NCBI GenBank assembly: GCA_026129095.1
Contig: JAHCIT010000006.1
Coordinates: forward strand, 64,235 to 128,234
Reading direction: 5' to 3'
From: Deltaproteobacteria bacterium
GTDB lineage: Bacteria; JAGRBM01; JAHCIT01
Length of the DNA: 64,000 nt
Both the position numbers and the translations under genes were made by a program. Below the pieces are notes generated by a model that did no database searches, was not told the DNA's origin, and saw only the letters and a program-made list of their open reading frames with translations. Position 1 is the stretch's first letter. Each line of letters begins with the position of its first letter. This document shows, piece after piece, positions 27,164-44,617 of the stretch.

Positions 27164-27670
27164 GTGGATGCCGATGAAAACCGGTACTTTCAGCTGGTCT
27201 GGGCACAAGTTGGGCACATCGAAACAGGCAGGGCCAGATCGCTGGTCTCCGCGCAAAAAGAACCGCTTTACCTCGCCAAGTATATTGAACGGATGGGCAC
27301 CGGCACCGGAGACATGATTCGGCGTTGCCGGGAGGCCGGATTCCCCGAACCGGAATTCACCATCCGGGACGGGTTCGTGACGATCATTCGGCGCAGGACC
27401 GGACAAGTCACCGGACAAGTTGATCCATGGGTGGAAAGGGTTCTCGAAGCCTGTGCAGTGAAGTCGCTTTCGAGCAAACAGATACAGGAAATCAGCGGCA
27501 TCAGGCACCGGGAGTCGTTCCAGCGGAACTACCTGGACCACCTGCTGAACGAAGGCTGGCTCGAACGTACCATTCCCGATAAACCCAACAGCTCGCGGCA
27601 GCAATACCGCCTGACAGGAAAAGGGTCCGCTCTGCTGGCAATGTTGCGGGAGAAAAACCGGAGAGAGTGA
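27164..27670 (+). pseudogene. C-terminal fragment of an HATPase_c_4/wHTH (Schlafen-AlbA-associated divergent ATPase) transcriptional-regulator-like gene
   Basis: LYLAKYIERMGTGTGDMIRRCREAGFPEPEFTIRDGFVTI is typical of the C-terminal ~150 aa of ~480-aa proteins of this family. The ORF starts immediately inside the island boundary and lacks the N-terminal domains. Confidence 0.45.
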
Positions 27671-27891: not shown

Positions 27892-29025
27892 ATGACCGGC
27901 GGTTTTCTCCATCCGGCGGACCTCAAACGCCACCTGCTCAACCCCGACAAGTTCGTGCGGGAATGGGCCTCGATTTATTTCGGCAGTGCATTGATCCAAG
28001 ACACCGACCTGCCTGTTCTCATCATGGAGGCAGTCGAAAGATACGGCGAACTCAACAGTTTCTTCAGCTTGGCCAAACTGGATGTGTTCCCTCAGACGGA
28101 ACGGTCGGTTTCCATGATCCTCTCGCGGCTGGAAAAGGTCCGCCGGCAGGAAACCGCCGAATGCCTGAACCGGGCGCTCGCACTGATGCCGCTCGATCTC
28201 GTGCCGGTCTTCGAGAGCCGCATGAAAGCCGTCCCTGCCCTGCATCCAATGACTCATGAAAGGATCGCACGGCGGCGGGAATACAGATCCCGCAGGCCGC
28301 CGGAACTTTTCGACGAGCTTCTGTCGGTCTCGCTGAAATACGAAGGGAAACCCGTCCCGCCCCCCGAATTTGCCAGAACCGACGATCTGATTGAAGCGAT
28401 TGCCGCCCAGGACTGGCCGCCGTCCGGGAAACTGGTCGAGATGCTCCGGGAGCCGGATTACCAGGGGAGATGGGCCGAATACTTCATTGTGAAACTCTGC
28501 GGAACAGTCAGGAGCGAGCTGGCGGTGCCGCTCATCGTCGCGCAGCTGGCGTCAGATGATGATTTCCTTCCGGATGCCGCGCAGGAGAGCCTGTACCGGA
28601 TTGGGTATCCCGGAACTCCCGGCCTCATCCGGTCCCTCTGGCATAAACTTCCGGATGAACTCTCCCGTATGATGTCCGCATACACTTTCGCCGGTTTCAA
28701 ATCGCCCGCCTCGGCGGCAGCGGTCCTTGAACTGCTGGAACTGGAGGATGACCCCAGCCTGAGAACCATTCTGCTCGACTCGCTCGCCTATCTCGGTTCG
28801 GACAGGGCGGTGGCTATCGGTTGCGAGGAACTGGATGACCTTGACGAAGCCGTTACCGGAGACCTCATCCTGGCACTCTATGGAGCCGCAAAAATCCGCG
28901 GACTTGAAGTTCCCGAAGCGGCTGCATGGAAGAACGAACTGGAAGAGAACAACCGTCGCTTCAACAAGGAGGTGTTCGGCGTCGGCCCCGGTTCAGACCG
29001 GCCCCTGAGAAAACTGCCATTTTAG
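27892..29025 (+). CDS. Hypothetical alpha-helical (HEAT/ARM-like) repeat protein
   Basis: The 377-aa protein has a repetitive leucine-rich helical composition. No catalytic motif was recognised. Confidence 0.4.
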   Translation: MTGGFLHPADLKRHLLNPDKFVREWASIYFGSALIQDTDLPVLIMEAVERYGELNSFFSLAKLDVFPQTERSVSMILSRLEKVRRQETAECLNRALALMPLDLVPVFESRMKAVPALHPMTHERIARRREYRSRRPPELFDELLSVSLKYEGKPVPPPEFARTDDLIEAIAAQDWPPSGKLVEMLREPDYQGRWAEYFIVKLCGTVRSELAVPLIVAQLASDDDFLPDAAQESLYRIGYPGTPGLIRSLWHKLPDELSRMMSAYTFAGFKSPASAAAVLELLELEDDPSLRTILLDSLAYLGSDRAVAIGCEELDDLDEAVTGDLILALYGAAKIRGLEVPEAAAWKNELEENNRRFNKEVFGVGPGSDRPLRKLPF

Positions 29026-29111
29026 CGAAACCACAACGGCCGTTGTCTAATCAATATGGTATACAATTTAGATACGACATTTATAATTTGAGGTATAGCA
29101 ATACTTTTATC

Positions 29112-29139
29112 TTGACTCTTCCGTACCCATGCATATACT
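29112..29139 (+). promoter_or_regulatory. Sigma70-like promoter of the Type I RM operon (TTGACT-16-TATACT)
   Basis: It sits in an AT-rich 90-bp intergenic stretch at 29040-29130, with -35 at 29112-29117 and -10 at 29134-29139. Confidence 0.4.
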
Positions 29140-29191
29140 TGTGGCTATGGAAGCGTCACAACCCACCCATTTTCACCTCCAAAAAACGGCT

Positions 29192-29803
29192 AAAATGGCC
29201 GTTTGGCGGTCTTTGGGCGAGGTTGCCGAGATCATCGCCGGTCACCCGCTCTACCGGTTCGAGGGCGACACAGGACCTGCGATCCCGATTATCAATATCC
29301 GCGACCTGGAACACGCCGCCGATCTGACTCACTTCCTGGAAACGGCCGCCATCTCCGATCCGGCCAGATTCGGGCGTGCCCGGATTCTTCCCGACGATGT
29401 GATTGTGACGGCGAGAGGGACGCAGCTCCGGTCGGTTCTGGCCCCGGCCCGCTGGCAGGGCGCGGTCGCCTCATCGAACCTCATGCTCATCCGGCCGAAG
29501 CCGGAGATACTACTCCCGGAACTGCTGTCGGTATTTCTCCAGTCGCCCGCCGGGGTGAAAGCGTTCGAGCAGCGCCGGACCGGCACTCAGTTACTCAAGC
29601 TCACCCTTCGGGATCTGGCCGAAATCGAAGTGCCGGTGCCGCCGCTTTCCGAACAGCGCCAGCTCGCGGACCTGCTCCGCTCTGCCCAGGACTATTACGT
29701 CAACGCCCGCTACGCCGCCGAGATGCGTCTGATGGCGGCGCGCCAGATCGTGTCGGAACGGATTCTGCCCCCGCGCAAGCCCGCCACTGGAGACCCTGAA
29801 TGA
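29192..29803 (+). CDS. hsdS: Half-size Type I restriction-modification specificity subunit (single target-recognition domain HsdS); the ORF is listed from 29129 but the start at 29192 (MAVWRSLGEV) is likely
   Basis: The C-terminal conserved region VPVPPLSEQRQLADLL parallels the LPPLPEQKRIA and LPIPPIDEQRQI motifs of the full HsdS downstream. The stop overlaps the hsdM start. Confidence 0.6.
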   Translation, partial: KMAVWRSLGEVAEIIAGHPLYRFEGDTGPAIPIINIRDLEHAADLTHFLETAAISDPARFGRARILPDDVIVTARGTQLRSVLAPARWQGAVASSNLMLIRPKPEILLPELLSVFLQSPAGVKAFEQRRTGTQLLKLTLRDLAEIEVPVPPLSEQRQLADLLRSAQDYYVNARYAAEMRLMAARQIVSERILPPRKPATGDPE

Positions 29804-31302
29804 AAACCACCAGCACCAGCCAGCTCTTCGGCCACATCTGGAAAGCCGCCGACATCTTGCGCGGCTCCATCGACTCGTCCGACTACAAGGGGTTCATCTT
29901 CGCGATGATGTTCCTCAAGCGCGCCAACGACGTGTTCGAGGAAGAGGCCGAGAAAATTTTGAAGGAAACCGGCGACCGCAAGCTCGCCTACGAAGACGAG
30001 GACGAGCACCCGATCTTCGTGCCCAAGCGTGCGCGGTGGGAGGAACTCCGCAAGAAATCCACCCAGCTGGGCGACACCCTCAACAAGGCTTGCGAAGCGC
30101 TGGAACACTCCAATTCGACGCTTGAAGGCGTCCTTGCCGGCATCGACTTCAACGACGAGCACCGGCTGGGCGACGCCAAGCAGCGCGACATGCTGCTGGC
30201 GAAACTGATCCTTCATTTCTCGGAGATCAGCCTGCGGAACGCCGATCTGCCGGAGCCCGACGCGCTCGGCCGGGTCTATGAATACCTGATCGAGAAGTTC
30301 GCCGACGACGCCGGCAAGAAGGGCGGCGAGTTCTACACCCCGCGCGGCGTCGTCCAGCTTCTGGCGGAACTGCTCGAACCGAAAGAAGGGATGCGGATCT
30401 GCGACCCCACCTGCGGATCGGGCGGCATGCTGATCGAATGCGCGCACAAGATCGAGAATGACGGCGGCAACCCGCGCAACCTCTCCCTGTTCGGGCAGGA
30501 GAAGAACCTGGGCACCTGGGCCATCGCCAAGATGAACCTGCTCCTTCACGGGCTGCCGGACGCGCAGGTCGCCAAGGGGGACACGATCCGCGATCCCAAG
30601 TTCCTGGAAAAGGGCGAACTGATGCTGTTCGACCGGGTGATTGCCAATCCGCCGTTCAGCCTGGACGAATGGGGCCGCGATGCGGCCGAGGCCGACCGGT
30701 TCGGGCGCTTCAGGTTCGGCGTTCCGCCCGCCAGCAAGGGCGACCTAGCGTTCCTCCAGCACATGGTTGCGACGCTCAATGCCAAGGGCATGCTCGGCGT
30801 CGTCATGCCGCACGGCGTGCTGTTCCGGGGCGGTGCCGAAGGGAAGATCCGCGAAGGTCTCCTGAAGGAAGACCTGTTCGAGGCGGTGATCGGCCTGCCG
30901 GTGAACCTGTTCTACGGAACCGGGATTCCGGCGGCGATCCTGGTGCTGCGCCGGTCCGGAGCGAAACCGCCCGCCCGGCGCGGCAAGGTGCTGTTTATCA
31001 ACGCACCGGACGGATTCGAGAGCGCCCCGAACCAGAACAAGCTCCGGCCGCAGGATATCGAGCGGATCGCCAGGGCGTTCAAGGCCTTCAGGGACGAGGA
31101 GAACTTCGCCCGCGTCGTGCCGCTGAAAGAGATCGAGGACAACGGCTTCAACCTGAACATCTCCCGCTACGTGGAGATGGGCGGTGAAGATGCGATCCCC
31201 GACGTCCGCGAGGCGCTGAAAGCGCTCCGCGTCGCGGAAGCAAAGCGCGATGAGGCCGAGAAGCGCATGAACAGGATGCTCAGGGAACTCGGGTTCGAGT
31301 GA
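29800..31302 (+). CDS. hsdM: Type I restriction-modification N6-adenine DNA methyltransferase subunit
   Basis: The N-terminus SQLFGHIWKAADILRGSIDSSDYKGFIFAMMFLKR, the FYTPR motif, the SAM motif DPTCGSGGML and the NPPF motif (IANPPFS) are all present. Confidence 0.9.
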   Translation: MKTTSTSQLFGHIWKAADILRGSIDSSDYKGFIFAMMFLKRANDVFEEEAEKILKETGDRKLAYEDEDEHPIFVPKRARWEELRKKSTQLGDTLNKACEALEHSNSTLEGVLAGIDFNDEHRLGDAKQRDMLLAKLILHFSEISLRNADLPEPDALGRVYEYLIEKFADDAGKKGGEFYTPRGVVQLLAELLEPKEGMRICDPTCGSGGMLIECAHKIENDGGNPRNLSLFGQEKNLGTWAIAKMNLLLHGLPDAQVAKGDTIRDPKFLEKGELMLFDRVIANPPFSLDEWGRDAAEADRFGRFRFGVPPASKGDLAFLQHMVATLNAKGMLGVVMPHGVLFRGGAEGKIREGLLKEDLFEAVIGLPVNLFYGTGIPAAILVLRRSGAKPPARRGKVLFINAPDGFESAPNQNKLRPQDIERIARAFKAFRDEENFARVVPLKEIEDNGFNLNISRYVEMGGEDAIPDVREALKALRVAEAKRDEAEKRMNRMLRELGFE

Positions 31303-31853
31303 GCAGGGAGATGCAGGAATTCGCCATGTCGCGGCTTTGGGACCAACCGGGAGTGCCCCACAGGGGATGGAGGTGTATCGATGTCGTCGATAACCGGCCG
31401 GGTGACGTTGAGCCGGGCGAGGATGTCACCGAGGGCTATCCCACCTGCGAGATGTGCGGCCAGGAGCGGATACGGTTCGTGCATCTGATGGAGCATCCCG
31501 ATTTCCCGCAGCAACTGGACGTCGGCTGTGTCTGTGCGGAAAAGATGGAGGGCGACTACACCGGCCCGCGCCGGCGTGAGGCGACGCTCAAGAGCAAGGC
31601 CGCCCGCCGCGACAAATGGCTCACCCGGCGGTGGAACGAATCGGCGAAAGGGAACCCCTTCCTTCGCATTGAGGGCTTTGTCCTGACCGTATTCCGGGAT
31701 TCCCGCCGTCCCGGGCACTGGAAATGCAGCATTAAGGAACCCGGTGCCGAAGACCCGATCTTCGGCACCCAGTCCCATCCGTCCGAGGACGCCGCCAAGC
31801 TCGCCCTGTTCGAAAAGTTCTGGCACCTCCGGCAAAAAGGGACCGTCCAGTGA
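31299..31853 (+). CDS. Hypothetical Cys-rich (putative zinc-ribbon) protein embedded between hsdM and hsdS
   Basis: The 184-aa protein has the cysteine pattern WRCIDVV...YPTCEMCG...VGCVCAE. Its start and stop overlap the neighbouring genes by 4 nt each. Confidence 0.5.
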   Translation: MSREMQEFAMSRLWDQPGVPHRGWRCIDVVDNRPGDVEPGEDVTEGYPTCEMCGQERIRFVHLMEHPDFPQQLDVGCVCAEKMEGDYTGPRRREATLKSKAARRDKWLTRRWNESAKGNPFLRIEGFVLTVFRDSRRPGHWKCSIKEPGAEDPIFGTQSHPSEDAAKLALFEKFWHLRQKGTVQ

Positions 31854-33094
31854 CCAAGCCCCTTCCCAAAGGCTGGCGCCGCGTGCGGCTGGGCGAGTTT
31901 CTATCGCCGAGCAAGCTGCGCTTCGTTGTGCGCGACGACGTTACGTACACTCAAGTGACCGTAAGGATTCGCCATAAAGGCATCGTGGCAAGAGGTTACG
32001 AACAAGGTTCAAACATCAAGACGAAAAACCAGAATCAAATCAAAGCAGGGCAGTTTCTTATATCCAAGATCGACGCGCGTAACGGGGCCTGTGGTATTGT
32101 CCCACCAGAGCTTGATGATGCAGTAACGACTCACGACTTTCTTGCGTACGACGTCAATCCTGAAATTGTCGATCCGGGATTTTGGGACATCTATTCGTCG
32201 CTACCTTCGTTTGTCGAACTCTGTGCTTTGGCGAGTGAAGGGACAACGAATCGCGTTCGCCTGCGCCCCGATGAATTCCTGGACATGGAGATAGTGCTCC
32301 CTCCTCTCCCCGAGCAAAAACGGATCGCCGCCACCCTCCAGTCCGTCGACGCCGCCATCCGGGCCAACGAAGAGGTCATCGAAAAGACCCGCGACCTGAA
32401 AAAATCGCTCGCCAACGAGCTGCTGACCCGCGGTATCCCCGGCCGGCATAAGCGGTTCAAGGATTCCCCCATCGGCAAGATACCGGTGGACTGGGAGGTG
32501 AAGCGGCTGGGGGGCCTTCTTCTCCGGATCGAAGCAGGCAAAAGCCCCAAGTGTGAAGACCGTCCCGCCTCTCCAGAGGAATGGGGCGTGCTGAAAGTGA
32601 GCGCGGTAAGCTGGGGCACTTTTCATGCCCATGAGAATAAAGCGTTACTACCGTCGACATTGCCGTTCCCAGATTCTGAAGTTCAGGAGGGCGATCTTCT
32701 TCTTAGCAGAGCGAACACGCCGGATCTCGTTGGCCGTTGCGTAATCGTCGGGAAGGTGCGTCGACGCCTCCTGCTGTCTGACAAGACCCTTCGTCTTGTT
32801 CCCAATGATCGCCTCACCAGTAAACAGTTTCTAAATATCGCGTTGAATTCTCCCGATGCCAGAATACAGATTTCGTTAAATGCCACAGGCTCGTCACGCT
32901 CCATGAAGAATATTTCCCAAGAGACGCTACGGGATGTCGTCCTCCCTATACCGCCCATTGACGAACAGCGCCAGATCACTGAAGCGCTCGACACTACCGA
33001 TCCGCGAGATATCGAAGCGAAAACTGCCGTCCAGGAATATCGGAAAGTCGGTGCTTTACTACGGAGTTCTCTATTAGCGGGGATAAGTGTATGA
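31850..33094 (+). CDS. hsdS: Type I restriction-modification specificity subunit (two TRDs)
   Basis: The central and C-terminal conserved repeats are LPPLPEQKRIAATLQSVDAAI and LPIPPIDEQRQITEALDT. TRD1 (~31930-32300) is markedly AT-richer than the rest of the gene. Confidence 0.85.
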   Translation: MTKPLPKGWRRVRLGEFLSPSKLRFVVRDDVTYTQVTVRIRHKGIVARGYEQGSNIKTKNQNQIKAGQFLISKIDARNGACGIVPPELDDAVTTHDFLAYDVNPEIVDPGFWDIYSSLPSFVELCALASEGTTNRVRLRPDEFLDMEIVLPPLPEQKRIAATLQSVDAAIRANEEVIEKTRDLKKSLANELLTRGIPGRHKRFKDSPIGKIPVDWEVKRLGGLLLRIEAGKSPKCEDRPASPEEWGVLKVSAVSWGTFHAHENKALLPSTLPFPDSEVQEGDLLLSRANTPDLVGRCVIVGKVRRRLLLSDKTLRLVPNDRLTSKQFLNIALNSPDARIQISLNATGSSRSMKNISQETLRDVVLPIPPIDEQRQITEALDTTDPRDIEAKTAVQEYRKVGALLRSSLLAGISV

Positions 33095-33384
33095 ACTCAC
33101 TCATTACAGACGCCGTCCGCGAGCGCCGCGTCCTGACCTTCACCTATGATGGTTTTGAACGGCAGGTCGAGCCCTATACCTATGGAAAGCTGACGACCGG
33201 ATATGAAGGGTTGCGGGCGTTCCAGACCGGCGGCGGTTCGCGCTCCGGCAACCAGCCCATGTGGCGGCTGTTCCACGTCAACAGGATTCGCGGCCTCGCC
33301 CTGACCGAGGACCGGTTCACCAACCCAAGACCCGACTACAACCCCCAGGATTCCGACTTCCGGACCATCTGGGCGGGGGTGTGA
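33091..33384 (+). CDS. Small WYL-domain protein
   Basis: RVLTFTYDGFERQVEPYTYGKL...MWRLFHVNRIRGLALTEDRF matches the WYL-domain pattern (...Y....R.veP......WYL.a.....RtFRldRI). The ORF is 97 aa. Confidence 0.6.
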   Translation: MNSLITDAVRERRVLTFTYDGFERQVEPYTYGKLTTGYEGLRAFQTGGGSRSGNQPMWRLFHVNRIRGLALTEDRFTNPRPDYNPQDSDFRTIWAGV

Positions 33385-33387
33385 GCG

Positions 33388-34446
33388 ATGGCCAAGGGAA
33401 TAAATACTACGGGTGTACGGCTCCTTGATTACAAGGAAGTCCTGTCGTCACTCCCTGAAAAGAAGAAGCGCCACCTTCTCCTTGGGAACGGCTTCAGCCG
33501 CGCACTGCGCAACGACATTTTCTCTTACGATGCGTTGTTTGACCAGGCGGATTTCACGTCAATTGATCCCAGAATCAAGGATCTCTTCGGATCCCTTGGC
33601 ACCACCGATTTTGAAACTGTTATGCGCGTGCTTAGAGATGCATCGAACCTGATCAACGTATACTTGCCCAAAGATAAGTTGCTTGCGAATACCCTCATCG
33701 AACATTCCAATGCCTTAAAAGGCCTCTTGGCCAAAACTATTTCCGACAACCACCCCGCTCATCCAAACGAAATCAAGGAAGAGCAGTATCAGCATTGCCG
33801 CATTTTTCTGAATTCGTTCAAAGATGTTTATACGCTGAACTATGACCTTCTGCTTTATTGGACCCTCATGCACGAAGAGCTGGGAGATTCGCTTTCCAAT
33901 GATGACGGCTTCCGTACGCCAGATTCAGGTGAGCAGGAGTATGTCACCTGGGAAGTCGAGAATTCTAACAAGCAGACGGTTTTCTATCTCCATGGCGCGC
34001 TCCACTTGTTTGATGCTGGCGCTGAGCTCCAGAAATACACTTGGAAGAACACGCAGGTACGATTGATCAAGCAGATTCAAAACGCCCTCGAAGAAGACCG
34101 CTATCCACTAATCGTTGCTGAAGGAACCGCCGATGGAAAACGACGCCAGATCAAGCATAGCGGCTATTTAACGAGGGGTTTCCGCAGTCTTTCCAATATT
34201 GGCGAGACCATGATTATGTTTGGTGTTTCGTGTTCCAAACAGGATGAGCACATCCTCAAAGCGATAGAAAAGGGAAGTGGCAATGGCATCACCGATATAT
34301 ACGTAAGCATTTTCGGCGATCCCGATAGTGACGCCAATAAACGCATTATCCGCCGCGCCAAACAGATGGGAATCGCTCGGCCCAAATACCGAAAAGCATT
34401 GACCGTCTCCTTCTTTGACGCGTCAACCGCAAAGGTCTGGGGCTAA
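33388..34446 (+). CDS. SIR2-like (SIR2_2/DUF4917-type) protein
   Basis: LLLGNGFS, YTLNYDLLLYW and FYLHGALH correspond to the GAGxS, TTNYD and HLHG signatures of the SIR2-like family. The protein is 352 aa and the gene is noticeably lower in GC than its neighbours. Confidence 0.6.
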   Translation: MAKGINTTGVRLLDYKEVLSSLPEKKKRHLLLGNGFSRALRNDIFSYDALFDQADFTSIDPRIKDLFGSLGTTDFETVMRVLRDASNLINVYLPKDKLLANTLIEHSNALKGLLAKTISDNHPAHPNEIKEEQYQHCRIFLNSFKDVYTLNYDLLLYWTLMHEELGDSLSNDDGFRTPDSGEQEYVTWEVENSNKQTVFYLHGALHLFDAGAELQKYTWKNTQVRLIKQIQNALEEDRYPLIVAEGTADGKRRQIKHSGYLTRGFRSLSNIGETMIMFGVSCSKQDEHILKAIEKGSGNGITDIYVSIFGDPDSDANKRIIRRAKQMGIARPKYRKALTVSFFDASTAKVWG

Positions 34447-34448
34447 TC

Positions 34449-37400
34449 GTGAGCGATACTCTTTCTCGTCTAGACCAGCTTCGGGCCACCTGGCAGGCCC
34501 GGTTGCCGCTGTCGTCCGACGATCTCAGGCGGCTGCGCGAGCACTGGGAAATCGTTCACACCTACAACTCGAACGCGATCGAAGGGAATACGCTTACCCT
34601 CGGCGAGACCAAGGCGATCCTGATCGACGGGATCACCATCAGCGGCAAGCCGCTTCGGGAAATCCTCGAAGCCACCAATCACAAGTCGGCGATGGGGCTT
34701 CTCTACCGGCTGGCCGAGTCAAAGACGCCGCTGACGGAACCGGAAATCCTGGACCTTCACCGGCTGATCCTGAACGCGATCCGGCCCGACGACGCCGGGC
34801 GCTACCGCACAGATACGGTTCGGGTCGGTGGTTCCCGTCATGTATTTCCGAACCCGGCCAAGGTCCCGGACCTGATGGCGGAGTTTGTTGCCGGGATTGC
34901 GAAGGAAACTGGCCATCCGGTGAAAATCGCCGCCCGCGCCCACTTCCGGTTTGTCGCCATTCACCCGTTCGCCGACGGCAACGGACGTACAGCCCGTCTG
35001 CTGATGAACCTGCTGCTCATGAGGTCGGGCTATCCGCCTGCGTTCCTGCCGGTCGAACGGCGGGGCGAGTATTACGACCTGCTCGAAGAGTCTCATACAA
35101 AGGGGACGGGCCGCTTCGAATCATTCATCGCCGAATGCGTGGCGGAGTCTCTTGAAGATACGCTTGAGGGGTTGGGCGGAGTGGATGCGGCTCCGGCGGC
35201 TCCTGCCGCCGCTCCGGCAACAAAGACCAGACCGGCGGGCACGGCCGGGCGCTCGTCCCGGTGGAACGAGGAAGACCTCTCGGAGGGACCGGCCGTGGCC
35301 TTGCTGGAAAAGCTGGGCTGGACATTCATCGAGAGCGAACGCCTGAATTCCGACCGGGATACGAACCGGGACGCGATTCTGGCCAGACGGCTGGAGAAGG
35401 CGCTCCGGAGGCTGAACCCGTGGCTGTCGGACGACAATCTCCACCGGGCCGTCCGCTCGGTCACGCATATCCCCGCCACGGGCCTGATCGAGGCGAACGA
35501 GCGGGTTCACCGGACCCTCGTGCATACGCTGTCGCTGGAACAGGACCTGAACGACGGACGCGGGAAGATCGGCCGCGACGTCCATTTCATCGACTTCGCC
35601 AATTCGCGGAATAACGAGTTCGTCGTCACCCGGCAGTTCGATGTCCAGGGGGCCAATCAGCGGCGGATCTTCGATGCCGTCTGCTTCGTGAACGGTCTCC
35701 CGCTGGCGATCATCGAGTGCAAGTCGCCCACGCTCGGCGAAAAGTGGTTCGAGGAGGCGATGAAATCCCTGAACCTCTATCAGGAGGCGAAGGACGAATA
35801 CGCCGGTCAGGGCGTCCCGAAGGCGTTCGAAGCGACACAGGTGGTCGCCGCGCTTGCGGGCTCGTCCGGGGCAAAACTCGCCACCGTGCTGACTCCGGAC
35901 CGGCATTATGCCGAGTGGCGGGAGCCGTTCCCACTATCGCGGGAGGCCGTCGCTGGTCTCGTCGGCCGCGAGGTGACGCCACAGGATCTTCTGATCGCGA
36001 GCGCCCTTTCGCCGGAAAGCCTGCTCGACCTCGTTTCGAACTTCGTCGTTTTTGAACCCGAAGGGGCGAGGCGCGTCAAGAAACTCGCCAAGTACCAGCA
36101 GTTCATCGCCGTGAACCGGGCGCTAGACCGCATCAGAACCGCTCCTGACCCGGCGGCCCGTGGCGGCATAGTCTGGCACACCCAGGGCTCGGGCAAATCG
36201 CTCACGATGCTCTGGCTGGCGGTGAAACTGCGCCGGCTGGCGGCTCTGGAGAACCCGTCCATTGTGATCGTCACGGACCGTACGGATCTCGACACCCAGA
36301 TCAGCGAGACCTTTGAGCGGTGCGGCTTCCCGAATCCCCAGCAGGCGAAAAGCGTCCGGCATCTGGCCGAACTACTCGGGGCCGGATCGGGCCTCACGAT
36401 CACGACAACGATCCAGAAGTTTCAGGGCGTGTCCGGCGGCAAGCAGACGGCCCTGAACGAGGCGTCGAACCTGTTTGTCCTTGTCGATGAGGCGCACCGG
36501 ACCCAGTACAAATCGCTCGCGGCCCGCATGCGTCAGGCCCTTCCGAATGCCTGCTTCCTGGGTTTTACCGGAACGCCGATCGACAAGAACGACCGTTCCA
36601 CCCCGAAGGTTTTCGGCCCCTACATCCATACCTATCCGATCCAGCAGGCGGTGGAAGACGGCGCGACGGTTCCCATTTATTACGAAGGCCGTCTGACCGA
36701 GCTTCACGTCGAAGGCTCGTCGCTCGATGCGGTATTTGGCCGGGTGTTCGCGGACAAGTCGGATGATGAAAAGGCGGCCATCCGCAAGAAGTTCGTCACC
36801 TACGAGGCGGTCGCCGGGGCTCCGAGCCGGATCACGCGAATCTGCACGGACCTCGTCGACCATTTCGAGAAGTTCATCCGGCCGAACGGATTCAAGGCGC
36901 AGGTTGTCGCCTGCACGCGGGACGCCGCCGTCACCTACCTTGAAACGCTGGAACGGCTGGGAGCACCCGAGTGCGCGCTCATCATGTCCGGCACCCATAC
37001 GGATGAGGACCGGCTCGCACGGCATCACAAGTCCAGGGAACAGCAGAAGGAGCTGATCGCCCGGTTTATCAACAAGGACGATCCGCTTTCAATTTTAGTC
37101 GTCTGCGACATGCTGCTGACCGGCTTCGATGCGCCGGTCGAACAGGTGATGTATCTGGACAGCCCCCTCAAAGAGCACAATCTTCTCCAGGCAATCGCCC
37201 GCGTGAACCGCACGGCCGAAGGCAAGACTTACGGTCTTGTGGTGGACTACTGGGGCATCTCCGATGAACTCCAGGACGCGCTGGCCGTTTTCGATCCCAA
37301 AGACATTCAGGGCGCGCTGGTGGAGATTTCCAGCGAGCTGCCGAGGCTGGAGAACCGGCACCGGCAGGTCATGGACCTGTTCAGGAAGGTGGACCGCAAA

Positions 37401-38258
37401 GACCCGGAAGCCTGTCTCCGGATTCTGGAGCCTGAAGACCGGCGGGCCGAGTTCGAAGCGAAGTTCCGCAAGTTCGCCCAGAGCATGGACATGGTTCTGC
37501 CCGATCCCGCCGCCCTGAAGTTCCAGAAAGACCTGACCTGGCTTGGCAAACTCCGCGTCATGGCCCGTGCGCGGTTCCGCGATGATAGCCTCGATCTCTC
37601 CGGCTGCGGCGCAAAGGTCAAAAAACTCATTGAGGAATACGTACGAGCTGACGAGGTTGTCCAACTCACGGAGCCGGTTTCGATCTTCTCGAAGCGGTTC
37701 GATGAAGAAGTGGACAAGCTCAAGTCTCCGGAGGCGAAAGCCAGCGAGATGGAACACGCCGTCAAGCACGAGATCAGTGTCAAGATCTCCGAAGACCCCG
37801 TGTTCTACCAGAAACTCTCGGAACGTCTGGAGGAGATTATCCGTGACCGCAGGGAGCATCGTATCCAGGCGGCAGAGGCGATCAAGCGGCTGCAACTGGT
37901 CCTCGACGAACTCCGTGGCCGTCATCAGCAAGCGAACTCTTTGGGCCTAAGTGATGAGGAACTAGCGTTTTTCAACGCGATCCAGGCGCCGGGGAGTTCC
38001 AATACGCTCAAGGAGGAACCCGCTCCATATGGGAATGCTCACTCTCCCCAAGAGCAGGAACGGGCGAAACTCGCCGCGGAAGTTTTCGCCATGCTTAAAG
38101 AACTCGCCGTCATTGACTGGGTCCGCAAAGAGGATGTCCAGAGGGAAATGCGCCGTCAGGTCAAGCGGCGACTCCGCTTCGCTGGGTTCGGCGATGATGA
38201 GACAGAAAAACTGACCACCTCGCTGATGGATCTCGCCAGAGCACGGCTCGCGAAGTGA
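34449..38258 (+). CDS. hsdR: Type I restriction enzyme R subunit (HsdR) with an N-terminal Fic (AMPylase-type) domain fusion
   Basis: The HsdR part has the Walker A motif HTQGSGKS, the DEAH box LVDEAHR, an HsdR N-terminal region (ALLEKLGWTFIE) and a C-terminal helicase domain. The first ~230 aa contain the Fic motif HPFADGNGRTARLLMNLLL, joined by an Ala/Pro-rich linker. The total is 1269 aa with a GTG start. Confidence 0.85.
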   Translation: MSDTLSRLDQLRATWQARLPLSSDDLRRLREHWEIVHTYNSNAIEGNTLTLGETKAILIDGITISGKPLREILEATNHKSAMGLLYRLAESKTPLTEPEILDLHRLILNAIRPDDAGRYRTDTVRVGGSRHVFPNPAKVPDLMAEFVAGIAKETGHPVKIAARAHFRFVAIHPFADGNGRTARLLMNLLLMRSGYPPAFLPVERRGEYYDLLEESHTKGTGRFESFIAECVAESLEDTLEGLGGVDAAPAAPAAAPATKTRPAGTAGRSSRWNEEDLSEGPAVALLEKLGWTFIESERLNSDRDTNRDAILARRLEKALRRLNPWLSDDNLHRAVRSVTHIPATGLIEANERVHRTLVHTLSLEQDLNDGRGKIGRDVHFIDFANSRNNEFVVTRQFDVQGANQRRIFDAVCFVNGLPLAIIECKSPTLGEKWFEEAMKSLNLYQEAKDEYAGQGVPKAFEATQVVAALAGSSGAKLATVLTPDRHYAEWREPFPLSREAVAGLVGREVTPQDLLIASALSPESLLDLVSNFVVFEPEGARRVKKLAKYQQFIAVNRALDRIRTAPDPAARGGIVWHTQGSGKSLTMLWLAVKLRRLAALENPSIVIVTDRTDLDTQISETFERCGFPNPQQAKSVRHLAELLGAGSGLTITTTIQKFQGVSGGKQTALNEASNLFVLVDEAHRTQYKSLAARMRQALPNACFLGFTGTPIDKNDRSTPKVFGPYIHTYPIQQAVEDGATVPIYYEGRLTELHVEGSSLDAVFGRVFADKSDDEKAAIRKKFVTYEAVAGAPSRITRICTDLVDHFEKFIRPNGFKAQVVACTRDAAVTYLETLERLGAPECALIMSGTHTDEDRLARHHKSREQQKELIARFINKDDPLSILVVCDMLLTGFDAPVEQVMYLDSPLKEHNLLQAIARVNRTAEGKTYGLVVDYWGISDELQDALAVFDPKDIQGALVEISSELPRLENRHRQVMDLFRKVDRKDPEACLRILEPEDRRAEFEAKFRKFAQSMDMVLPDPAALKFQKDLTWLGKLRVMARARFRDDSLDLSGCGAKVKKLIEEYVRADEVVQLTEPVSIFSKRFDEEVDKLKSPEAKASEMEHAVKHEISVKISEDPVFYQKLSERLEEIIRDRREHRIQAAEAIKRLQLVLDELRGRHQQANSLGLSDEELAFFNAIQAPGSSNTLKEEPAPYGNAHSPQEQERAKLAAEVFAMLKELAVIDWVRKEDVQREMRRQVKRRLRFAGFGDDETEKLTTSLMDLARARLAK

Positions 38259-38261
38259 TCC

Positions 38262-38990
38262 ATGGTACTTCGTTCCTTCCAGTTCGGTAACACCCGAATC
38301 AGCTACCGGACGATCCGCTCCAGCCGGCGGACCACAATAGGCATTGCTGTAAAACCAGACGGGAAAGTTGTGGCTTCGGTGCCACAGGGCATAACGGTTT
38401 CCAAAGTGGACCGGGCCATTCGGTCCAAAGCCCGTTGGATCTACCAGAAGCAGCTTGAGGCGCGGGAGTTACAGTCCCAGCAGCCTTCCGGCAGGGAATT
38501 CGTTGACGGCGAGACGTTCAAATATCTGGGCCGGGGGTACCGGTTGCGGATTTCAGTGGGTCACCAGTCCGAGGTTCGTCTGATGAATGGCCGCTTAAGA
38601 GTCATCGTGGCAAACAAGCCCGCGAGTGGGCGCAAGCCTGAGCTGGTCCGTTCCGCCCTGATAGAATGGTATCGACAGCATGCGATCCAGCGTCTCGCCG
38701 AACGAATGGATTACTGGTCCAGAAGGATGGGGATATCACGTCCCAGAATGTTGCTGGGAGACCAGAATCGCCGCTGGGGGAGTTGTAGCGCGAAAGGCGA
38801 AGTCCGGATCAACTGGCGGATTATTCAGGCCCCCATGAGGATCGTAGACTATGTGATTGTCCACGAACTGGTCCATCTGATCCATCCGGATCACTCAAGG
38901 GCATACTGGAAAGCGCTTCATCGTGTCTTGCCGGATGCGCCTCAACGAAAATCCCGCCTGTATCTCATCGGCCCCGAGCTGATGTGGTGA
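38262..38990 (+). CDS. YgjP-like (DUF45/WLM-type) zinc metallopeptidase associated with Type I RM
   Basis: The HEXXH motif is in IVHELVHLIHPDHS, and RWGSCSAKGEVRINWRI is typical of DUF45. The gene starts 4 nt after the hsdR stop. Confidence 0.75.
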   Translation: MVLRSFQFGNTRISYRTIRSSRRTTIGIAVKPDGKVVASVPQGITVSKVDRAIRSKARWIYQKQLEARELQSQQPSGREFVDGETFKYLGRGYRLRISVGHQSEVRLMNGRLRVIVANKPASGRKPELVRSALIEWYRQHAIQRLAERMDYWSRRMGISRPRMLLGDQNRRWGSCSAKGEVRINWRIIQAPMRIVDYVIVHELVHLIHPDHSRAYWKALHRVLPDAPQRKSRLYLIGPELMW

Positions 38991-39016
38991 GCGGGATTTC
39001 CGGAATGAGGACTGCT

Positions 39017-39469
39017 TCAGTCGTCTTCGAGCATGCCGAACTCGTCCATCTCTTTCATCCATGAATACAATGACCGGCGCACCGGCAGGCAGGCATCTTT
39101 CCGGACCACAAAATCGGCAATGTCCATGTAGCGAATCCGTGGCAGCTTTGCCGCGGGAATACCCGCGTTGTCCCGGCAGTTTCCGGTCAGTTCCACTTCA
39201 TGAATTGCCAGGGTGATGCTGCCGGTGAATGCCGGCGGCGACATCACCAGAAGTGATTTTTCCGACACCGGTAATCCTGTCTGCCTGAGAAAACTGGATT
39301 CAATTTCCTCCGGTACATCTTCGAAGGCCATCGTCACCCCTCCGGGCAGATCCCAGACCGCTCCGGTCTTCACGACGAGAATCTGACAGTCGTCGGTCAT
39401 GAGTAGACCGCGAGCATGGATTTCTGGGGGCTTCCCCGTTATAGGATTTCGGGCGGTTGGTGGGTTCAT
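39017..39469 (-). CDS. Nudix-fold-like protein with a degenerate Nudix box
   Basis: WDLPGGVTMAFEDVPEEIESSFLRQTG aligns to Gx5Ex7REUxEExGU, but the REx2EE catalytic residues are replaced by SSx2RQ. Confidence 0.35.
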   Translation of the reverse strand: MNPPTARNPITGKPPEIHARGLLMTDDCQILVVKTGAVWDLPGGVTMAFEDVPEEIESSFLRQTGLPVSEKSLLVMSPPAFTGSITLAIHEVELTGNCRDNAGIPAAKLPRIRYMDIADFVVRKDACLPVRRSLYSWMKEMDEFGMLEDD

Positions 39470-41659: not shown

Positions 41660-44617
41660 TCAGTCGATGCCGTAATATGCGAGCGTGAAAAGGCCCAACT
41701 GGTTCTTTCGCTTTTGGTTCTCAGTTAAATTATCGTCATCTTTCACGGTTCGAAGTGCCGTAATCGCAGCCTGTTGAAAAACACTGCTTGGTAAAAATGC
41801 GCCTGATGAGACTGACTGTTCCATAAATATCTGGACAAACGTACGAATCAGGTTTGTCTGTAGCGGTGCGAGACCGGCAATAACACCTCTGGCTCCCTGG
41901 GCCAGGAATGCATCGGCCACAGTCTCCTTGTGCAGATGGTCGGTTTGCCGGCGGTAGGCAGCTGAACATGCGAACAAGGCCACGGTAGTACCGTTAAAGG
42001 AGATGCCTGATGATTCGATATCCGTGCGACGAAGGCGTAATCCGCCCGGCAATGCGAGGCTGGAACGGGCCGGATCCGCTTCATCGAAACCGTGAGTAAT
42101 AATCGTGGCCAACTGGCTTCTGGAGATTGCCTGCAATACGTCTTGAACGGAGGAGATGTCCCAAGAATTACCTGGTGGTGAAGAGTATACCATTATCGCA
42201 CGATACAGCTCTGGCTCAAAAAGATTATAATTCCCGGATTTCGCGCTTAAGGTCGTTCTGTTGGTATCAGTAGCGAAGAACGGAGAGACCATGGCAGGGG
42301 TGATTACAGAAGACTGGAAGTTTTTGATGAAAGGTTCATTCTTCGATCCACAAGGAAGCCACTGTATGGGTAAATCCATCAGCTCGGCATCCACACTAAG
42401 GTATATATGCTTGGGTTTATGCTGATTTAGACAGGAGAGTAAACTGTTAGGGAAAAGCTTCTGTCCGATGATCAGCAATTTCCTATATAGCAAGTCCACT
42501 ATTTTTTCATTGGGTTGTTCATCCTTGGTACAAAGATGAATGAGATTTGGCAACGCCTGATCGGGATGGACAAGCTGTCTAAGAAAATCCCTTACAATAT
42601 TGTCCTTTTGAATACATTCTCGGATTTTGGCGAAATCAGATTTTCTCGCGTTATCTAGTTTTATGATATCTGTTTTACAGTTATCGTTTCCATTGTTTCT
42701 GGTTAACAAACAGAATGAAGTATTGTTTTCATTGATAAAGTAATGAACGGCAATGGATCCAGGATTTTTATTTACAAGATCGTATATCCTTTGACCGCCC
42801 CAAAGCTTGAAATATAATTCCGAAAGCTGATCACCTGCGGAGACGGTCGAAGCTCCATTTAAAACAGACTCTACATAGCCAGCAAATACCGGTTTTTCAT
42901 TCAACGATATATTGAGTAATCTTGTCCTCTTATTGGGTATCCACTGCATCTGCTTCTGAACAAGACCCGTATACAGCTTGCACAAGCCAGATGGAGTACC
43001 TCTTCCAGACTTTTTAATCAGCATACGGGTCACTTTCAAAATCTCACTCGAATGAAACAAACTATTACTGTCGGAAATTTTCTGCATTTTCGTGACTAAA
43101 TCATTGATCGCGTCCGTCTTGATGGACCGGACACTCTTTAGCTTTAATTTGATAGCCTGTAAATGCGAATTGTATAGTTGAAATGTTTTTGAAGGATTGT
43201 CATCCGATGGAATATATAATAGATTTTCCCAATTATGTCTTTTTAGTTCCTTTACTTCAGTATGGTTATTGTTTTGATCAAGGATCCCAAAGTTTGCGCT
43301 CTCACCGAGGCCATGCCATGTCGTTCGGTCGCCGTACACATGTTTCAAATAGGCAATAAAGTAATTCGCCCGTTGTCGTGTCTGCCCATCGTTAATCCAG
43401 TTCGACAGCATGAACTGGTAATGAAGCAGTTCAACGAGTGCATTGACATCAAGATTCCTGGACACCAGTTCGAGCTGCCGGTCGATAACTTCAGATGCAA
43501 GGCTGAATTTCATGGAGTGAAGCAGACGTGTCAATACGTAGCGTACATTTTTTGCTGAGAAAGGTTCGCTTGAGTTTTGGGCGGTAGCTTTAGCGGTTGA
43601 TGGGTCAGTGCATGACAATATCGAATTAATATCCGAGGACACTTGACATTCCAGAGGTGCTGCTTGATGCGACAAAAGAATGGGTGAAGGATTCGCCAGT
43701 TGGGTATCGATCTGATCAGCTTCAGCGGATAAGACCTGCTTTTGAGGCTGATCGAGGCTTGCGCGGTTACTTGCTAATTTGAGAATGGAGGCGCGATTAT
43801 TCCAGTCTCCATACAAGTAATATTCCCCAACCTTAAGATATTCCATAGTATTATTCGCAAATGGCGGATGTTTTCCTGCACTGATAACAGGATTCAGACT
43901 GGACCATAGCGATTGGATCGCAGTATCCATGTGACTGAGTTTAAGAACAGATATGATTAAAACCGGATATTCTTCTTTTAATATGATAAGTTTGGAATGG
44001 ATTCCTGATGGAGTGGTATTTGCGGGACCGGACAATGCGCAGTGGAGTAACTCTTTTAGTCCGTCATCGTCAATTATCATCTCAGTGTCTGTACGAAGGT
44101 GGAGAACTTGGTGGGTCAGCCAGTATGAATAATGGCGCACACTCCGCTGGGAAGAAATTGTGCCTGGAAACTGAATGCTACCGAGAATCTTTTTCACCGT
44201 GTTCGCGATGCCTTTGACCTTGGCAATCGTGTTTTCATGTTGCTCTGGCTGAACCTCCAGTACGGAAGAGGCGAGAAACATGATCGCCATTCCCAGCCCG
44301 GCGCGGTCGAGTGCATTGAGATGGGAAAATCTGTGAAATCCGGCGACTAAATCGCCAAATGCATTTACCTTTTCAACGTCGGTGTAATCTTCGATTGAGT
44401 TTAAAGAATCTGATAGCGGATCTGGGCTGGTGTTATTATTAACTATGTGGTCGACGATCGTCATTGTTTGTAGACCAGGAGTAACTAAATTCAGGTGGCG
44501 ATTGTTATCAGGCCCCGTTGGTGTCTTCTGCTTTTTGAAGACGGAACAGCCATTTAATATTCCGACGCATTTTAGAAGTTGGTTTGTCTTGAAAAATAAC
44601 TGAAGTCGTGGACTCAT
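41660..44617 (-). CDS. Large protein with C-terminal CHAT (caspase-like) protease domain; the true start may be the internal Met near 44466 to avoid overlap with the upstream gene
   Basis: The C-terminus has ATIITHGFDEA (His motif), TTVALFACSAAYR (catalytic Cys motif) and VADAFLAQGARGVIAGLAPL, which match the CHAT-domain signatures. The ~700-aa N-terminal region is unassigned. GC content is about 45%. Confidence 0.65.
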   Translation of the reverse strand: MSPRLQLFFKTNQLLKCVGILNGCSVFKKQKTPTGPDNNRHLNLVTPGLQTMTIVDHIVNNNTSPDPLSDSLNSIEDYTDVEKVNAFGDLVAGFHRFSHLNALDRAGLGMAIMFLASSVLEVQPEQHENTIAKVKGIANTVKKILGSIQFPGTISSQRSVRHYSYWLTHQVLHLRTDTEMIIDDDGLKELLHCALSGPANTTPSGIHSKLIILKEEYPVLIISVLKLSHMDTAIQSLWSSLNPVISAGKHPPFANNTMEYLKVGEYYLYGDWNNRASILKLASNRASLDQPQKQVLSAEADQIDTQLANPSPILLSHQAAPLECQVSSDINSILSCTDPSTAKATAQNSSEPFSAKNVRYVLTRLLHSMKFSLASEVIDRQLELVSRNLDVNALVELLHYQFMLSNWINDGQTRQRANYFIAYLKHVYGDRTTWHGLGESANFGILDQNNNHTEVKELKRHNWENLLYIPSDDNPSKTFQLYNSHLQAIKLKLKSVRSIKTDAINDLVTKMQKISDSNSLFHSSEILKVTRMLIKKSGRGTPSGLCKLYTGLVQKQMQWIPNKRTRLLNISLNEKPVFAGYVESVLNGASTVSAGDQLSELYFKLWGGQRIYDLVNKNPGSIAVHYFINENNTSFCLLTRNNGNDNCKTDIIKLDNARKSDFAKIRECIQKDNIVRDFLRQLVHPDQALPNLIHLCTKDEQPNEKIVDLLYRKLLIIGQKLFPNSLLSCLNQHKPKHIYLSVDAELMDLPIQWLPCGSKNEPFIKNFQSSVITPAMVSPFFATDTNRTTLSAKSGNYNLFEPELYRAIMVYSSPPGNSWDISSVQDVLQAISRSQLATIITHGFDEADPARSSLALPGGLRLRRTDIESSGISFNGTTVALFACSAAYRRQTDHLHKETVADAFLAQGARGVIAGLAPLQTNLIRTFVQIFMEQSVSSGAFLPSSVFQQAAITALRTVKDDDNLTENQKRKNQLGLFTLAYYGID

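Follow-up and report, generated by a model that had tools for sequence, protein, structure and literature searches.

A SIR2-like DUF4917 gene and a small WYL-domain gene embedded in a deltaproteobacterial Type I restriction-modification operon

A 64,000-nucleotide (nt) stretch of contig JAHCIT010000006.1 (assembly GCA_026129095.1), from an environmental deltaproteobacterial metagenome-assembled genome and referred to here as the window, carries a Type I restriction-modification (RM) operon in which two small genes occupy the junction between hsdS and hsdR. One encodes a stand-alone WYL-domain protein of 97 amino acids (aa), the other a 352-aa protein of the DUF4917 family with a predicted SIR2 fold. 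The DUF4917 gene recurs in Type I RM operons of many phyla, and the small WYL gene hardly ever accompanies it. Eight plus-strand open reading frames (ORFs), assigned through searches of Pfam, PADLOC and NCBIfam, are packed into positions 29129–38990 to form the operon, with junctions that are either 4-bp overlaps or gaps of 2–3 nt, and three of them (the 184-aa, 97-aa and 352-aa ORFs) are embedded among the RM genes. The features of the operon, from 5' to 3', are:

29060–29139, plus strand: two sigma-70-like promoter matches just 5' of the first operon gene, in an AT-rich stretch (GC ~0.50)
29129–29803, plus strand: half-size HsdS-like gene, 224 aa (Pfam Methylase_S, E = 2e-11); first gene, overlapping the start of hsdM by 4 bp
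29800–31302, plus strand: hsdM, Type I methyltransferase, 500 aa (Pfam N6_Mtase, E = 4e-101; HsdM_N, E = 8e-30)
31299–31853, plus strand: 184-aa ORF between hsdM and hsdS, overlapping each by 4 bp
31850–33094, plus strand: full-size hsdS, 414 aa (Pfam Methylase_S in two stretches; PADLOC Specificity_I, E = 9e-48); GC 0.546
33091–33384, plus strand: stand-alone WYL-domain protein, 97 aa (Pfam WYL, PADLOC WYL, structure model)
33388–34446, plus strand: DUF4917 protein with predicted SIR2 fold, 352 aa (PF16263, PDC-S21, structure model)
34449–38258, plus strand: hsdR with an N-terminal Fic fusion, 1269 aa (Pfam, NCBIfam, PADLOC)
38262–38990, plus strand: YgjP-like metallopeptidase, 242 aa (PF01863, E = 5e-56); last operon gene

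The two genes between hsdS and hsdR are tightly coupled to each other and to their neighbours, as an initial annotation of the window had described. The stop codon of hsdS and the start codon of the WYL gene overlap in an ATGA at 33091–33094; the WYL gene ends in a TGA at 33384, 3 nt before the ATG of the DUF4917 gene at 33388; and the TAA of the latter ends at 34446, 2 nt before the GTG start of hsdR at 34449. No flanking repeats or insertion scars were seen around the two genes. The same annotation had taken the low GC content of the SIR2-like gene as a sign that the cassette was acquired separately. GC content is indeed low in the DUF4917 gene (0.485, with 0.575 at third codon positions, GC3), the only member of the pair of which this is true, and the WYL gene is host-like in composition, resembling hsdM and hsdR (GC 0.619, GC3 0.80). 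As a cassette, then, the pair is not uniform in composition.

The 352-aa protein matches DUF4917 (PF16263) with 268.3 bits against a cutoff of 28 (E = 1.3e-79), its residues 30–351 spanning profile positions 1–311 of 311 and thus the full length of the family. The initial annotation knew of no described defence system made up of two such genes; the DUF4917 gene on its own, however, is already a PADLOC single-gene candidate, PDC-S21 (PDLC04960), which was the sole PADLOC match of the protein (E = 7.3e-121, profile positions 4–334 of 336). The PDC class was derived by guilt-by-embedding from genes within RM and BREX systems (Payne et al. 2024, bioRxiv 10.1101/2024.01.29.577857), and neither PDC-S21 nor DUF4917 was found in the accessible portion of the supplements to that preprint. 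A search for homologues recovered 5,752 proteins at E <= 1e-5, and this family of more than 5,700 members, together with a confident structure model, establishes DUF4917 as a real gene. Across 25 homologues (~50% identity) the invariant positions are G33-N-G35-F-S37, N151-Y-D153, D172-D-G, R176, H202-G203, E245, D286 and H288. The GxGxS, TTNYD and HLHG signatures named in the initial annotation are among these and invariant in the 25 homologues, but in approximate form only, as G33-N-G-F-S37, T149-L-N151-Y-D153 and Y200-L-H202-G203. Of the cysteines none is invariant in the same alignment and C137 alone is nearly so; the Cys4 zinc module of deacetylase sirtuins is absent.

In the structure model of the 352-aa protein (pLDDT 82.9) each of the three motifs follows a beta strand (residues 28–32, 146–149 and 198–200), and by their order and context G33-N-G35, N151 and H202 would correspond to the GAG, TQNID and HG motifs of sirtuins. 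A Foldseek search with the model returned 70 solved chains at E <= 1e-3, and all 50 that were listed belong to the SIR2 family. The best match was chain 8uae_B, the SIR2 protein of SIR2-HerA (Nezha), with E = 5.7e-10 and a template-modelling (TM) score of 0.58, followed by DSR2, Sir2Tm, SIRT2, KomC and ThsA. As modelled, the 352-aa protein has a SIR2 fold, with both the Rossmann GxG loop and the Asn and His residues of NAD+-using SIR2 enzymes retained. In the model the protein consists of the SIR2 domain alone and lacks a sensor domain.

We compared the gene neighbourhoods of DUF4917 across 80 species-level loci (labelled L below), of which 22, from many phyla, have Type I RM genes within 10 kb. 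The order found in the window, hsdM–hsdS–DUF4917–hsdR, is present in eight of these (L006, L014, L015, L026, L078, L079, L080 and L082), six of which also have a YgjP-like gene right after hsdR, and partially in four short contigs (L027, L056, L072 and L075). The hsdS–hsdR slot thus holds DUF4917 in 12 other loci, in agreement with the earlier description of this gap as a hotspot for passenger genes. DUF4917 lies just 5' of the RM operon in four loci (L016, L033, L047 and L053), and six have other RM arrangements, four of them with DUF4917 after a methyltransferase of 808–845 aa, either directly or with one ORF between. Start and stop codons of DUF4917 often overlap hsdS or hsdR in the RM loci. 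When the three genes on each side of DUF4917 were clustered across all 80 loci, only three families occurred in more than four loci, namely HsdM/HsdS, HsdR and the YgjP-like family, leaving RM genes as the sole recurrent neighbours. A YgjP-like homologue follows hsdR in 11 DUF4917 loci (including L006, L015, L078–L080 and L082), and a half-size S-like gene precedes hsdM in many (including L006, L014, L016, L027, L078 and L079); with a half-HsdS gene first and a YgjP-like gene last, recurring across phyla, these loci define a conserved operon subtype.

Members of the family embedded in RM operons are scattered over the DUF4917 tree, a distribution that implies either repeated capture or repeated loss. 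On a Methylobacter plasmid hsdM, a PDDEXK gene, hsdS, hsdR and DUF4917 follow one another, and on Leptospira plasmids DUF4917 stands alone among toxin-antitoxin genes. Neighbours at loci lacking RM genes match 214 different PADLOC families, each of which accounts for at most 3 of the 150 genes scanned, a diversity to be expected around a self-contained gene of defence islands. The DUF4917 gene of the window is, then, a further instance of the known candidate family PDC-S21 in a typical RM-embedded setting.

The 97-aa protein matches Pfam WYL (PF13280) marginally and in part (23.7 bits against a cutoff of 21.8, residues 4–29) and PADLOC WYL with E = 1.4e-6; 18 of 72 members of its family match Pfam WYL. 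Its structure model (pLDDT 92.8), in which one short helix and six strands fill the chain, is closest among solved structures to the WYL domain of DriD bound to single-stranded DNA (ssDNA) (TM 0.60–0.62, 24% identity), with Sm/Hfq barrels as the next matches, and the WYL assignment made in the initial annotation is upheld. An exhaustive search recovered 1,778 clusters of such WYL-only proteins at 50% identity, mostly ~97 aa in length, which conserve Y19, R24, V26, E27, P28, W58, F76 and Y83, among other residues. The size of this family and the confident model identify the 97-aa protein as a real gene with a WYL fold. It is no transcription regulator of the classical WYL type: Pfam searches gave no match to a helix-turn-helix (HTH) family and there is no WCX domain, and the protein therefore cannot work as WYL transcription factors do. 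Searches of PHROGs and NCBIfam gave no match, tblastn against GenBank phages found none, the WYL profile hit the sequences of solved structures only by chance, and a fold search of BFVD returned only uncharacterised viral proteins. The exact protein was not found in the contig index, and the literature searched does not describe WYL-only proteins of ~97 aa.

To follow the WYL gene beyond the window, 53 metagenomic and 37 viral loci were retrieved with a five-sequence WYL alignment, so that closer relatives and prophages of the human gut are over-represented among these 90 loci. The contexts are varied. In L100 the WYL gene is the sole occupant of the hsdS–hsdR junction, and in L105 it is followed by a ThsB-like TIR gene (E = 9e-132). 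A 1085-nt contig (P0002; ENA ERZ27297709) carries a WYL protein 86% identical to that of the window, with a 160-aa TIR_2 gene starting 10 nt 3' of it, which looks like an effector swap 3' of a conserved WYL gene. Elsewhere the neighbours are OLD-family nucleases (L116, L174–L176 and L179–L180), QatA (L117 and L118), RES (L092), HNH (L109), PDDEXK_15 (L120) and an SMC-like ATPase (L183), as well as the housekeeping genes Acs (L177) and CarA (L126). L174–L176 and L179–L180 represent two unrelated lineages in which the WYL gene shows translational coupling to nucleases of the OLD family (AAA_15 plus TOPRIM), in the order OLD, WYL, DUF2130 in one and WYL, KTSC, OLD in the other. In temperate phages the WYL gene is solitary in the immunity region, near genes for CI-like repressors and anti-repressors, and IMG/VR contigs of temperate phages from the human gut commonly carry a member of the family (L137–L173; e.g. 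L159, 5977–6285). Two WYL copies are present in L093, L098, L101 and L149. The 97-aa WYL protein is most likely a small, promiscuous ligand-binding protein separate from DUF4917, and its ligand is probably ssDNA or a nucleotide.

The initial annotation had proposed the WYL and SIR2-like genes as a new two-gene module, a proposal that the co-occurrence data do not support. Among the 80 DUF4917 loci, whose ORFs were searched with the window proteins and with a hidden Markov model (HMM) of the WYL family, a small WYL gene was found in one (L057, Rhodoferax ferrireducens), 11 nt 5' of DUF4917. In the opposite direction DUF4917 was absent from all of the WYL-retrieved loci (0/53 metagenomic, 0/37 viral). 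L136 has the same arrangement as the window, but at 88% identity it is a close relative and not an independent case. Conservation of the pair in other genomes is thus almost nil, and the two WYL-adjacent DUF4917 proteins, those of the window and L057, lie far apart in distant clades of a neighbour-joining tree. Near-absent co-occurrence and the difference in GC, with its dip confined to DUF4917, together mean that the pair is not a conserved two-gene system; a named candidate family accounts for one gene, and the two genes are almost never found together, which largely disposes of the proposed module. The WYL gene is at most an optional modulator or an independent passenger here, and not an obligate partner of DUF4917. 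At L057 (825–4149) a 645-aa SIR2_2 protein, matching PADLOC PDC-S65 (E = 2e-212), lies directly 3' of DUF4917, such that two different SIR2-type genes stand in tandem after one WYL gene.

Of the remaining genes of the operon, the 184-aa ORF is a third passenger and wholly unannotated: it carries CxxC and CxC motifs, matched nothing in Pfam, PADLOC, NCBIfam or PHROGs, and none of the 80 DUF4917 loci has a homologue. The HsdR protein matches the NCBIfam hsdR model (514 bits) and PADLOC REase_I, and in Pfam it shows Fic at residues 94–190 (E = 2e-25), HSDR_N, SWI2_SNF2, T1R_D3-like and T1RH-like_C domains. Its N-terminus (34449–35228, plus strand) matches PADLOC PDC-S04 and SoFic, and the translation retains an intact HPFADGNGR motif in the Fic domain. 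None of the HsdR proteins from the 80 comparison loci has a Fic fusion; in L016, L064 and L074 Fic is encoded by a gene of its own close to DUF4917. The two promoter matches at 29060–29139 are the only promoter-like sites on the plus strand within 28800–39300, and although they are matches to the consensus only, not above shuffled expectation, they probably mark the operon promoter. A scan of the sequence gave no convincing internal terminator in the operon. Just 5' of it lie a 168-aa ORF (27164–27670, plus strand) and a gene for a 377-aa HEAT-repeat protein (27892–29025, plus strand). The 168-aa ORF matches Fic-like_C and HATPase_c_4 and resembles the leftover C-terminal part of a bigger regulator. 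A 985-aa ORF (41660–44617, minus strand) lies a few kb 3' of the operon in a region of lower GC (~0.51–0.53).

Several known systems bear comparison with this arrangement. PrrC sits in the hsdS–X–hsdR slot. At the EcoprrI locus it follows the same logic in the same slot as DUF4917 without homology to it, PrrC being an ABC-ATPase fused to an anticodon nuclease and DUF4917 having a predicted SIR2 fold. PrrC has been cited as the example of a gene that is nearly always confined to Type I RM systems (10.1101/2024.01.29.577857). The TgvAB genes of Vibrio cholerae VPI-2 are likewise embedded in a Type I RM system and form an independent defence system (PMC11411939); the embedding logic is the same, but TgvAB is a GmrSD-type Type IV restriction enzyme with no homology to DUF4917. 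With the defence SIR2 NADases (SIR2-HerA, DSR2, ThsA and KomC) the DUF4917 protein shares the SIR2 fold and the GxG, Asn and His motifs at ~14% sequence identity; unlike them, it has neither a SLOG domain nor a long C-terminal sensor domain. Membership of Thoeris, DSR or SIR2-HerA was rejected, there being no HerA, ThsB or KomAB partner in the operon and no PADLOC match to these systems. The 352-aa protein is a full-length match to the PDC-S21 HMM, and its gene lies within a Type I RM operon, in line with the way in which PDC candidates were defined; its setting differs in the WYL-only gene on its 5' side and in the Fic-bearing hsdR.

For the WYL protein, the closest parallels are DriD, CapW/BrxR and PafBC, with which it shares the WYL/Sm-like barrel and an association with defence loci. 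It differs from them in being the barrel alone, without the winged HTH (wHTH) or ribbon-helix-helix domain and without the WCX dimerisation domain, and membership of the wHTH-WYL-WCX regulators was rejected for a 97-aa chain of one helix and six strands with no HTH match. The Cas13d accessory protein WYL1, with which the 97-aa protein has the WYL barrel in common, modulates Cas13d.

We consider it probable that the DUF4917 protein is an NAD+-consuming backup effector within the RM operon, comparable in this respect to PrrC, with the WYL protein as either a facultative accessory or a passenger in its own right. Cleavage of NAD+ would serve as a second line of defence of the abortive-infection type, and by analogy with PrrC the protein would be co-expressed with the restriction complex and perhaps restrained by it. 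The WYL protein might modulate neighbouring effectors through protein contacts, in the manner of WYL1 and Cas13d. A number of points weigh against this interpretation. The initial annotation had assigned the 352-aa protein to both DUF4917 and SIR2_2, and the DUF4917 assignment and SIR2 fold stand, but the match to Pfam SIR2_2 (PF13289) reaches only 22.6 bits, under the cutoff of 24.5. The DUF4917 profile matched no sequence of a solved structure even at E <= 10, so the assignment of catalytic residues draws on motif order and the predicted fold; an hhalign comparison of the profile with the SIR2_2 protein of L057 aligned just the NYD/NFD motif, at 2% probability. In the literature searched there is no demonstrated anti-phage phenotype for DUF4917 or PDC-S21, the latter being a prediction, and any link of DUF4917 to the Hsd subunits, whether by contact or by regulation, is hypothetical. 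The only characterised DUF4917 protein, SliP of Campylobacter jejuni (Cjj81176_0779), has been interpreted as a flagellum-secreted, NAD+-dependent histone deacetylase and virulence factor and not as a defence NADase (PMC10421069). Lastly, the two juxtapositions of WYL and DUF4917, at 3 nt in the window and 11 nt in L057, exceed chance for so rare a gene and, with the TIR swap, may leave room for a facultative functional affinity between the two.

Under a two-gene model, WYL and DUF4917 would form a dedicated sensor-effector system, in which the WYL protein binds a ligand of phage origin (ssDNA or a nucleotide, for instance) and activates the SIR2-like NADase. The WYL domains of DriD and CapW sense ssDNA (PMC11662680), the genes are separated by a mere 3 nt, and their order is repeated at close spacing in Rhodoferax with a DUF4917 protein of a distant clade; TIR_2, which takes the place of DUF4917 behind the 86%-identical WYL protein, is another NAD+-cleaving fold, and the ThsB-like TIR gene of L105 again follows a WYL gene. 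Such a system is nonetheless unlikely. The WYL gene is missing from 79 of the 80 DUF4917 loci, although the HMM search was run at E values up to 10, and DUF4917 from every one of the 90 WYL-family loci; PADLOC models DUF4917 as a single-gene candidate; the WYL gene also occurs without an effector between hsdS and hsdR (L100), beside Acs or CarA, and alone in phage immunity regions; and the two genes differ sharply in GC content.

The DUF4917 protein could instead be a sirtuin-type protein deacylase or ADP-ribosyltransferase that does not deplete NAD+ in bulk, acting on an Hsd subunit (for example in restriction alleviation), a phage protein or a host histone. SliP consumes NAD+ and deacetylates acetyl-lysine peptides in vitro in an NAD+-dependent manner, and a G26A substitution in its GNG motif lowers this activity (PMC10421069). 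As far as its description allows comparison, SliP shares with the window protein the Pfam family, the G-N-G NAD-binding motif and an operon with a Type I hsdR gene (Cjj81176_0779/0780); a role for DUF4917 in defence is not discussed in the SliP paper (PMC10421069). The fold search also matched Sir2Tm and human SIRT2, and a place in one operon with hsdR would be fitting for a protein that modifies the restriction complex. We give this account only a slim chance: a Cys4 zinc module is not conserved, the closest solved folds are SIR2-HerA defence NADases (E ~1e-9, against 1e-4 for sirtuin deacetylases), the activities reported for SliP are small fold changes, a secreted role on host histones is implausible for an environmental deltaproteobacterium, and ~70% of DUF4917 genes lack RM neighbours that they could regulate. 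Very improbable, finally, is that both genes are inert hitch-hikers or serve functions outside defence and persist because the hsdS–hsdR junction tolerates insertions. The slot does hold unrelated genes, such as extra ORFs in L006, L015 and L026 and the PDDEXK gene of the Methylobacter plasmid, the low GC of DUF4917 suggests recent acquisition, and WYL-family genes also lie next to housekeeping genes. Yet the catalytic motifs are strongly conserved across phyla at ~50% identity, DUF4917 recurs in the RM operons of many clades and has neighbourhoods rich in defence genes elsewhere, and, at the level of sequence, the coupling of starts to stops between ORFs that are intact speaks for expression.

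The direct return from the DUF4917 gene of the window is modest, as the family is already listed as PDC-S21 and this is one more instance of it. The ~97-aa WYL-only family, whose 1,778 clusters are frequent in prophages and next to varied effectors and are uncharacterised, might represent a novel type of accessory protein. One doubtful reading of these proteins would make them widespread, portable sensors or adaptors of ssDNA or nucleotides that plug in trans into interchangeable effectors, among them DUF4917 (in the window and in Rhodoferax), TIR_2, ThsB-like TIR, OLD nucleases and QatA, and that also serve in the immunity regions of temperate phages; in the operon described here, the WYL protein would on that account link ssDNA released by Type I restriction to activation of a DUF4917 NADase. 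For DUF4917 itself, repeated insertion into Type I RM operons across phyla makes the family a good candidate for a PrrC-like backup to restriction, and the RM-embedded context of SliP suggests that the primary role of that protein may merit re-examination.

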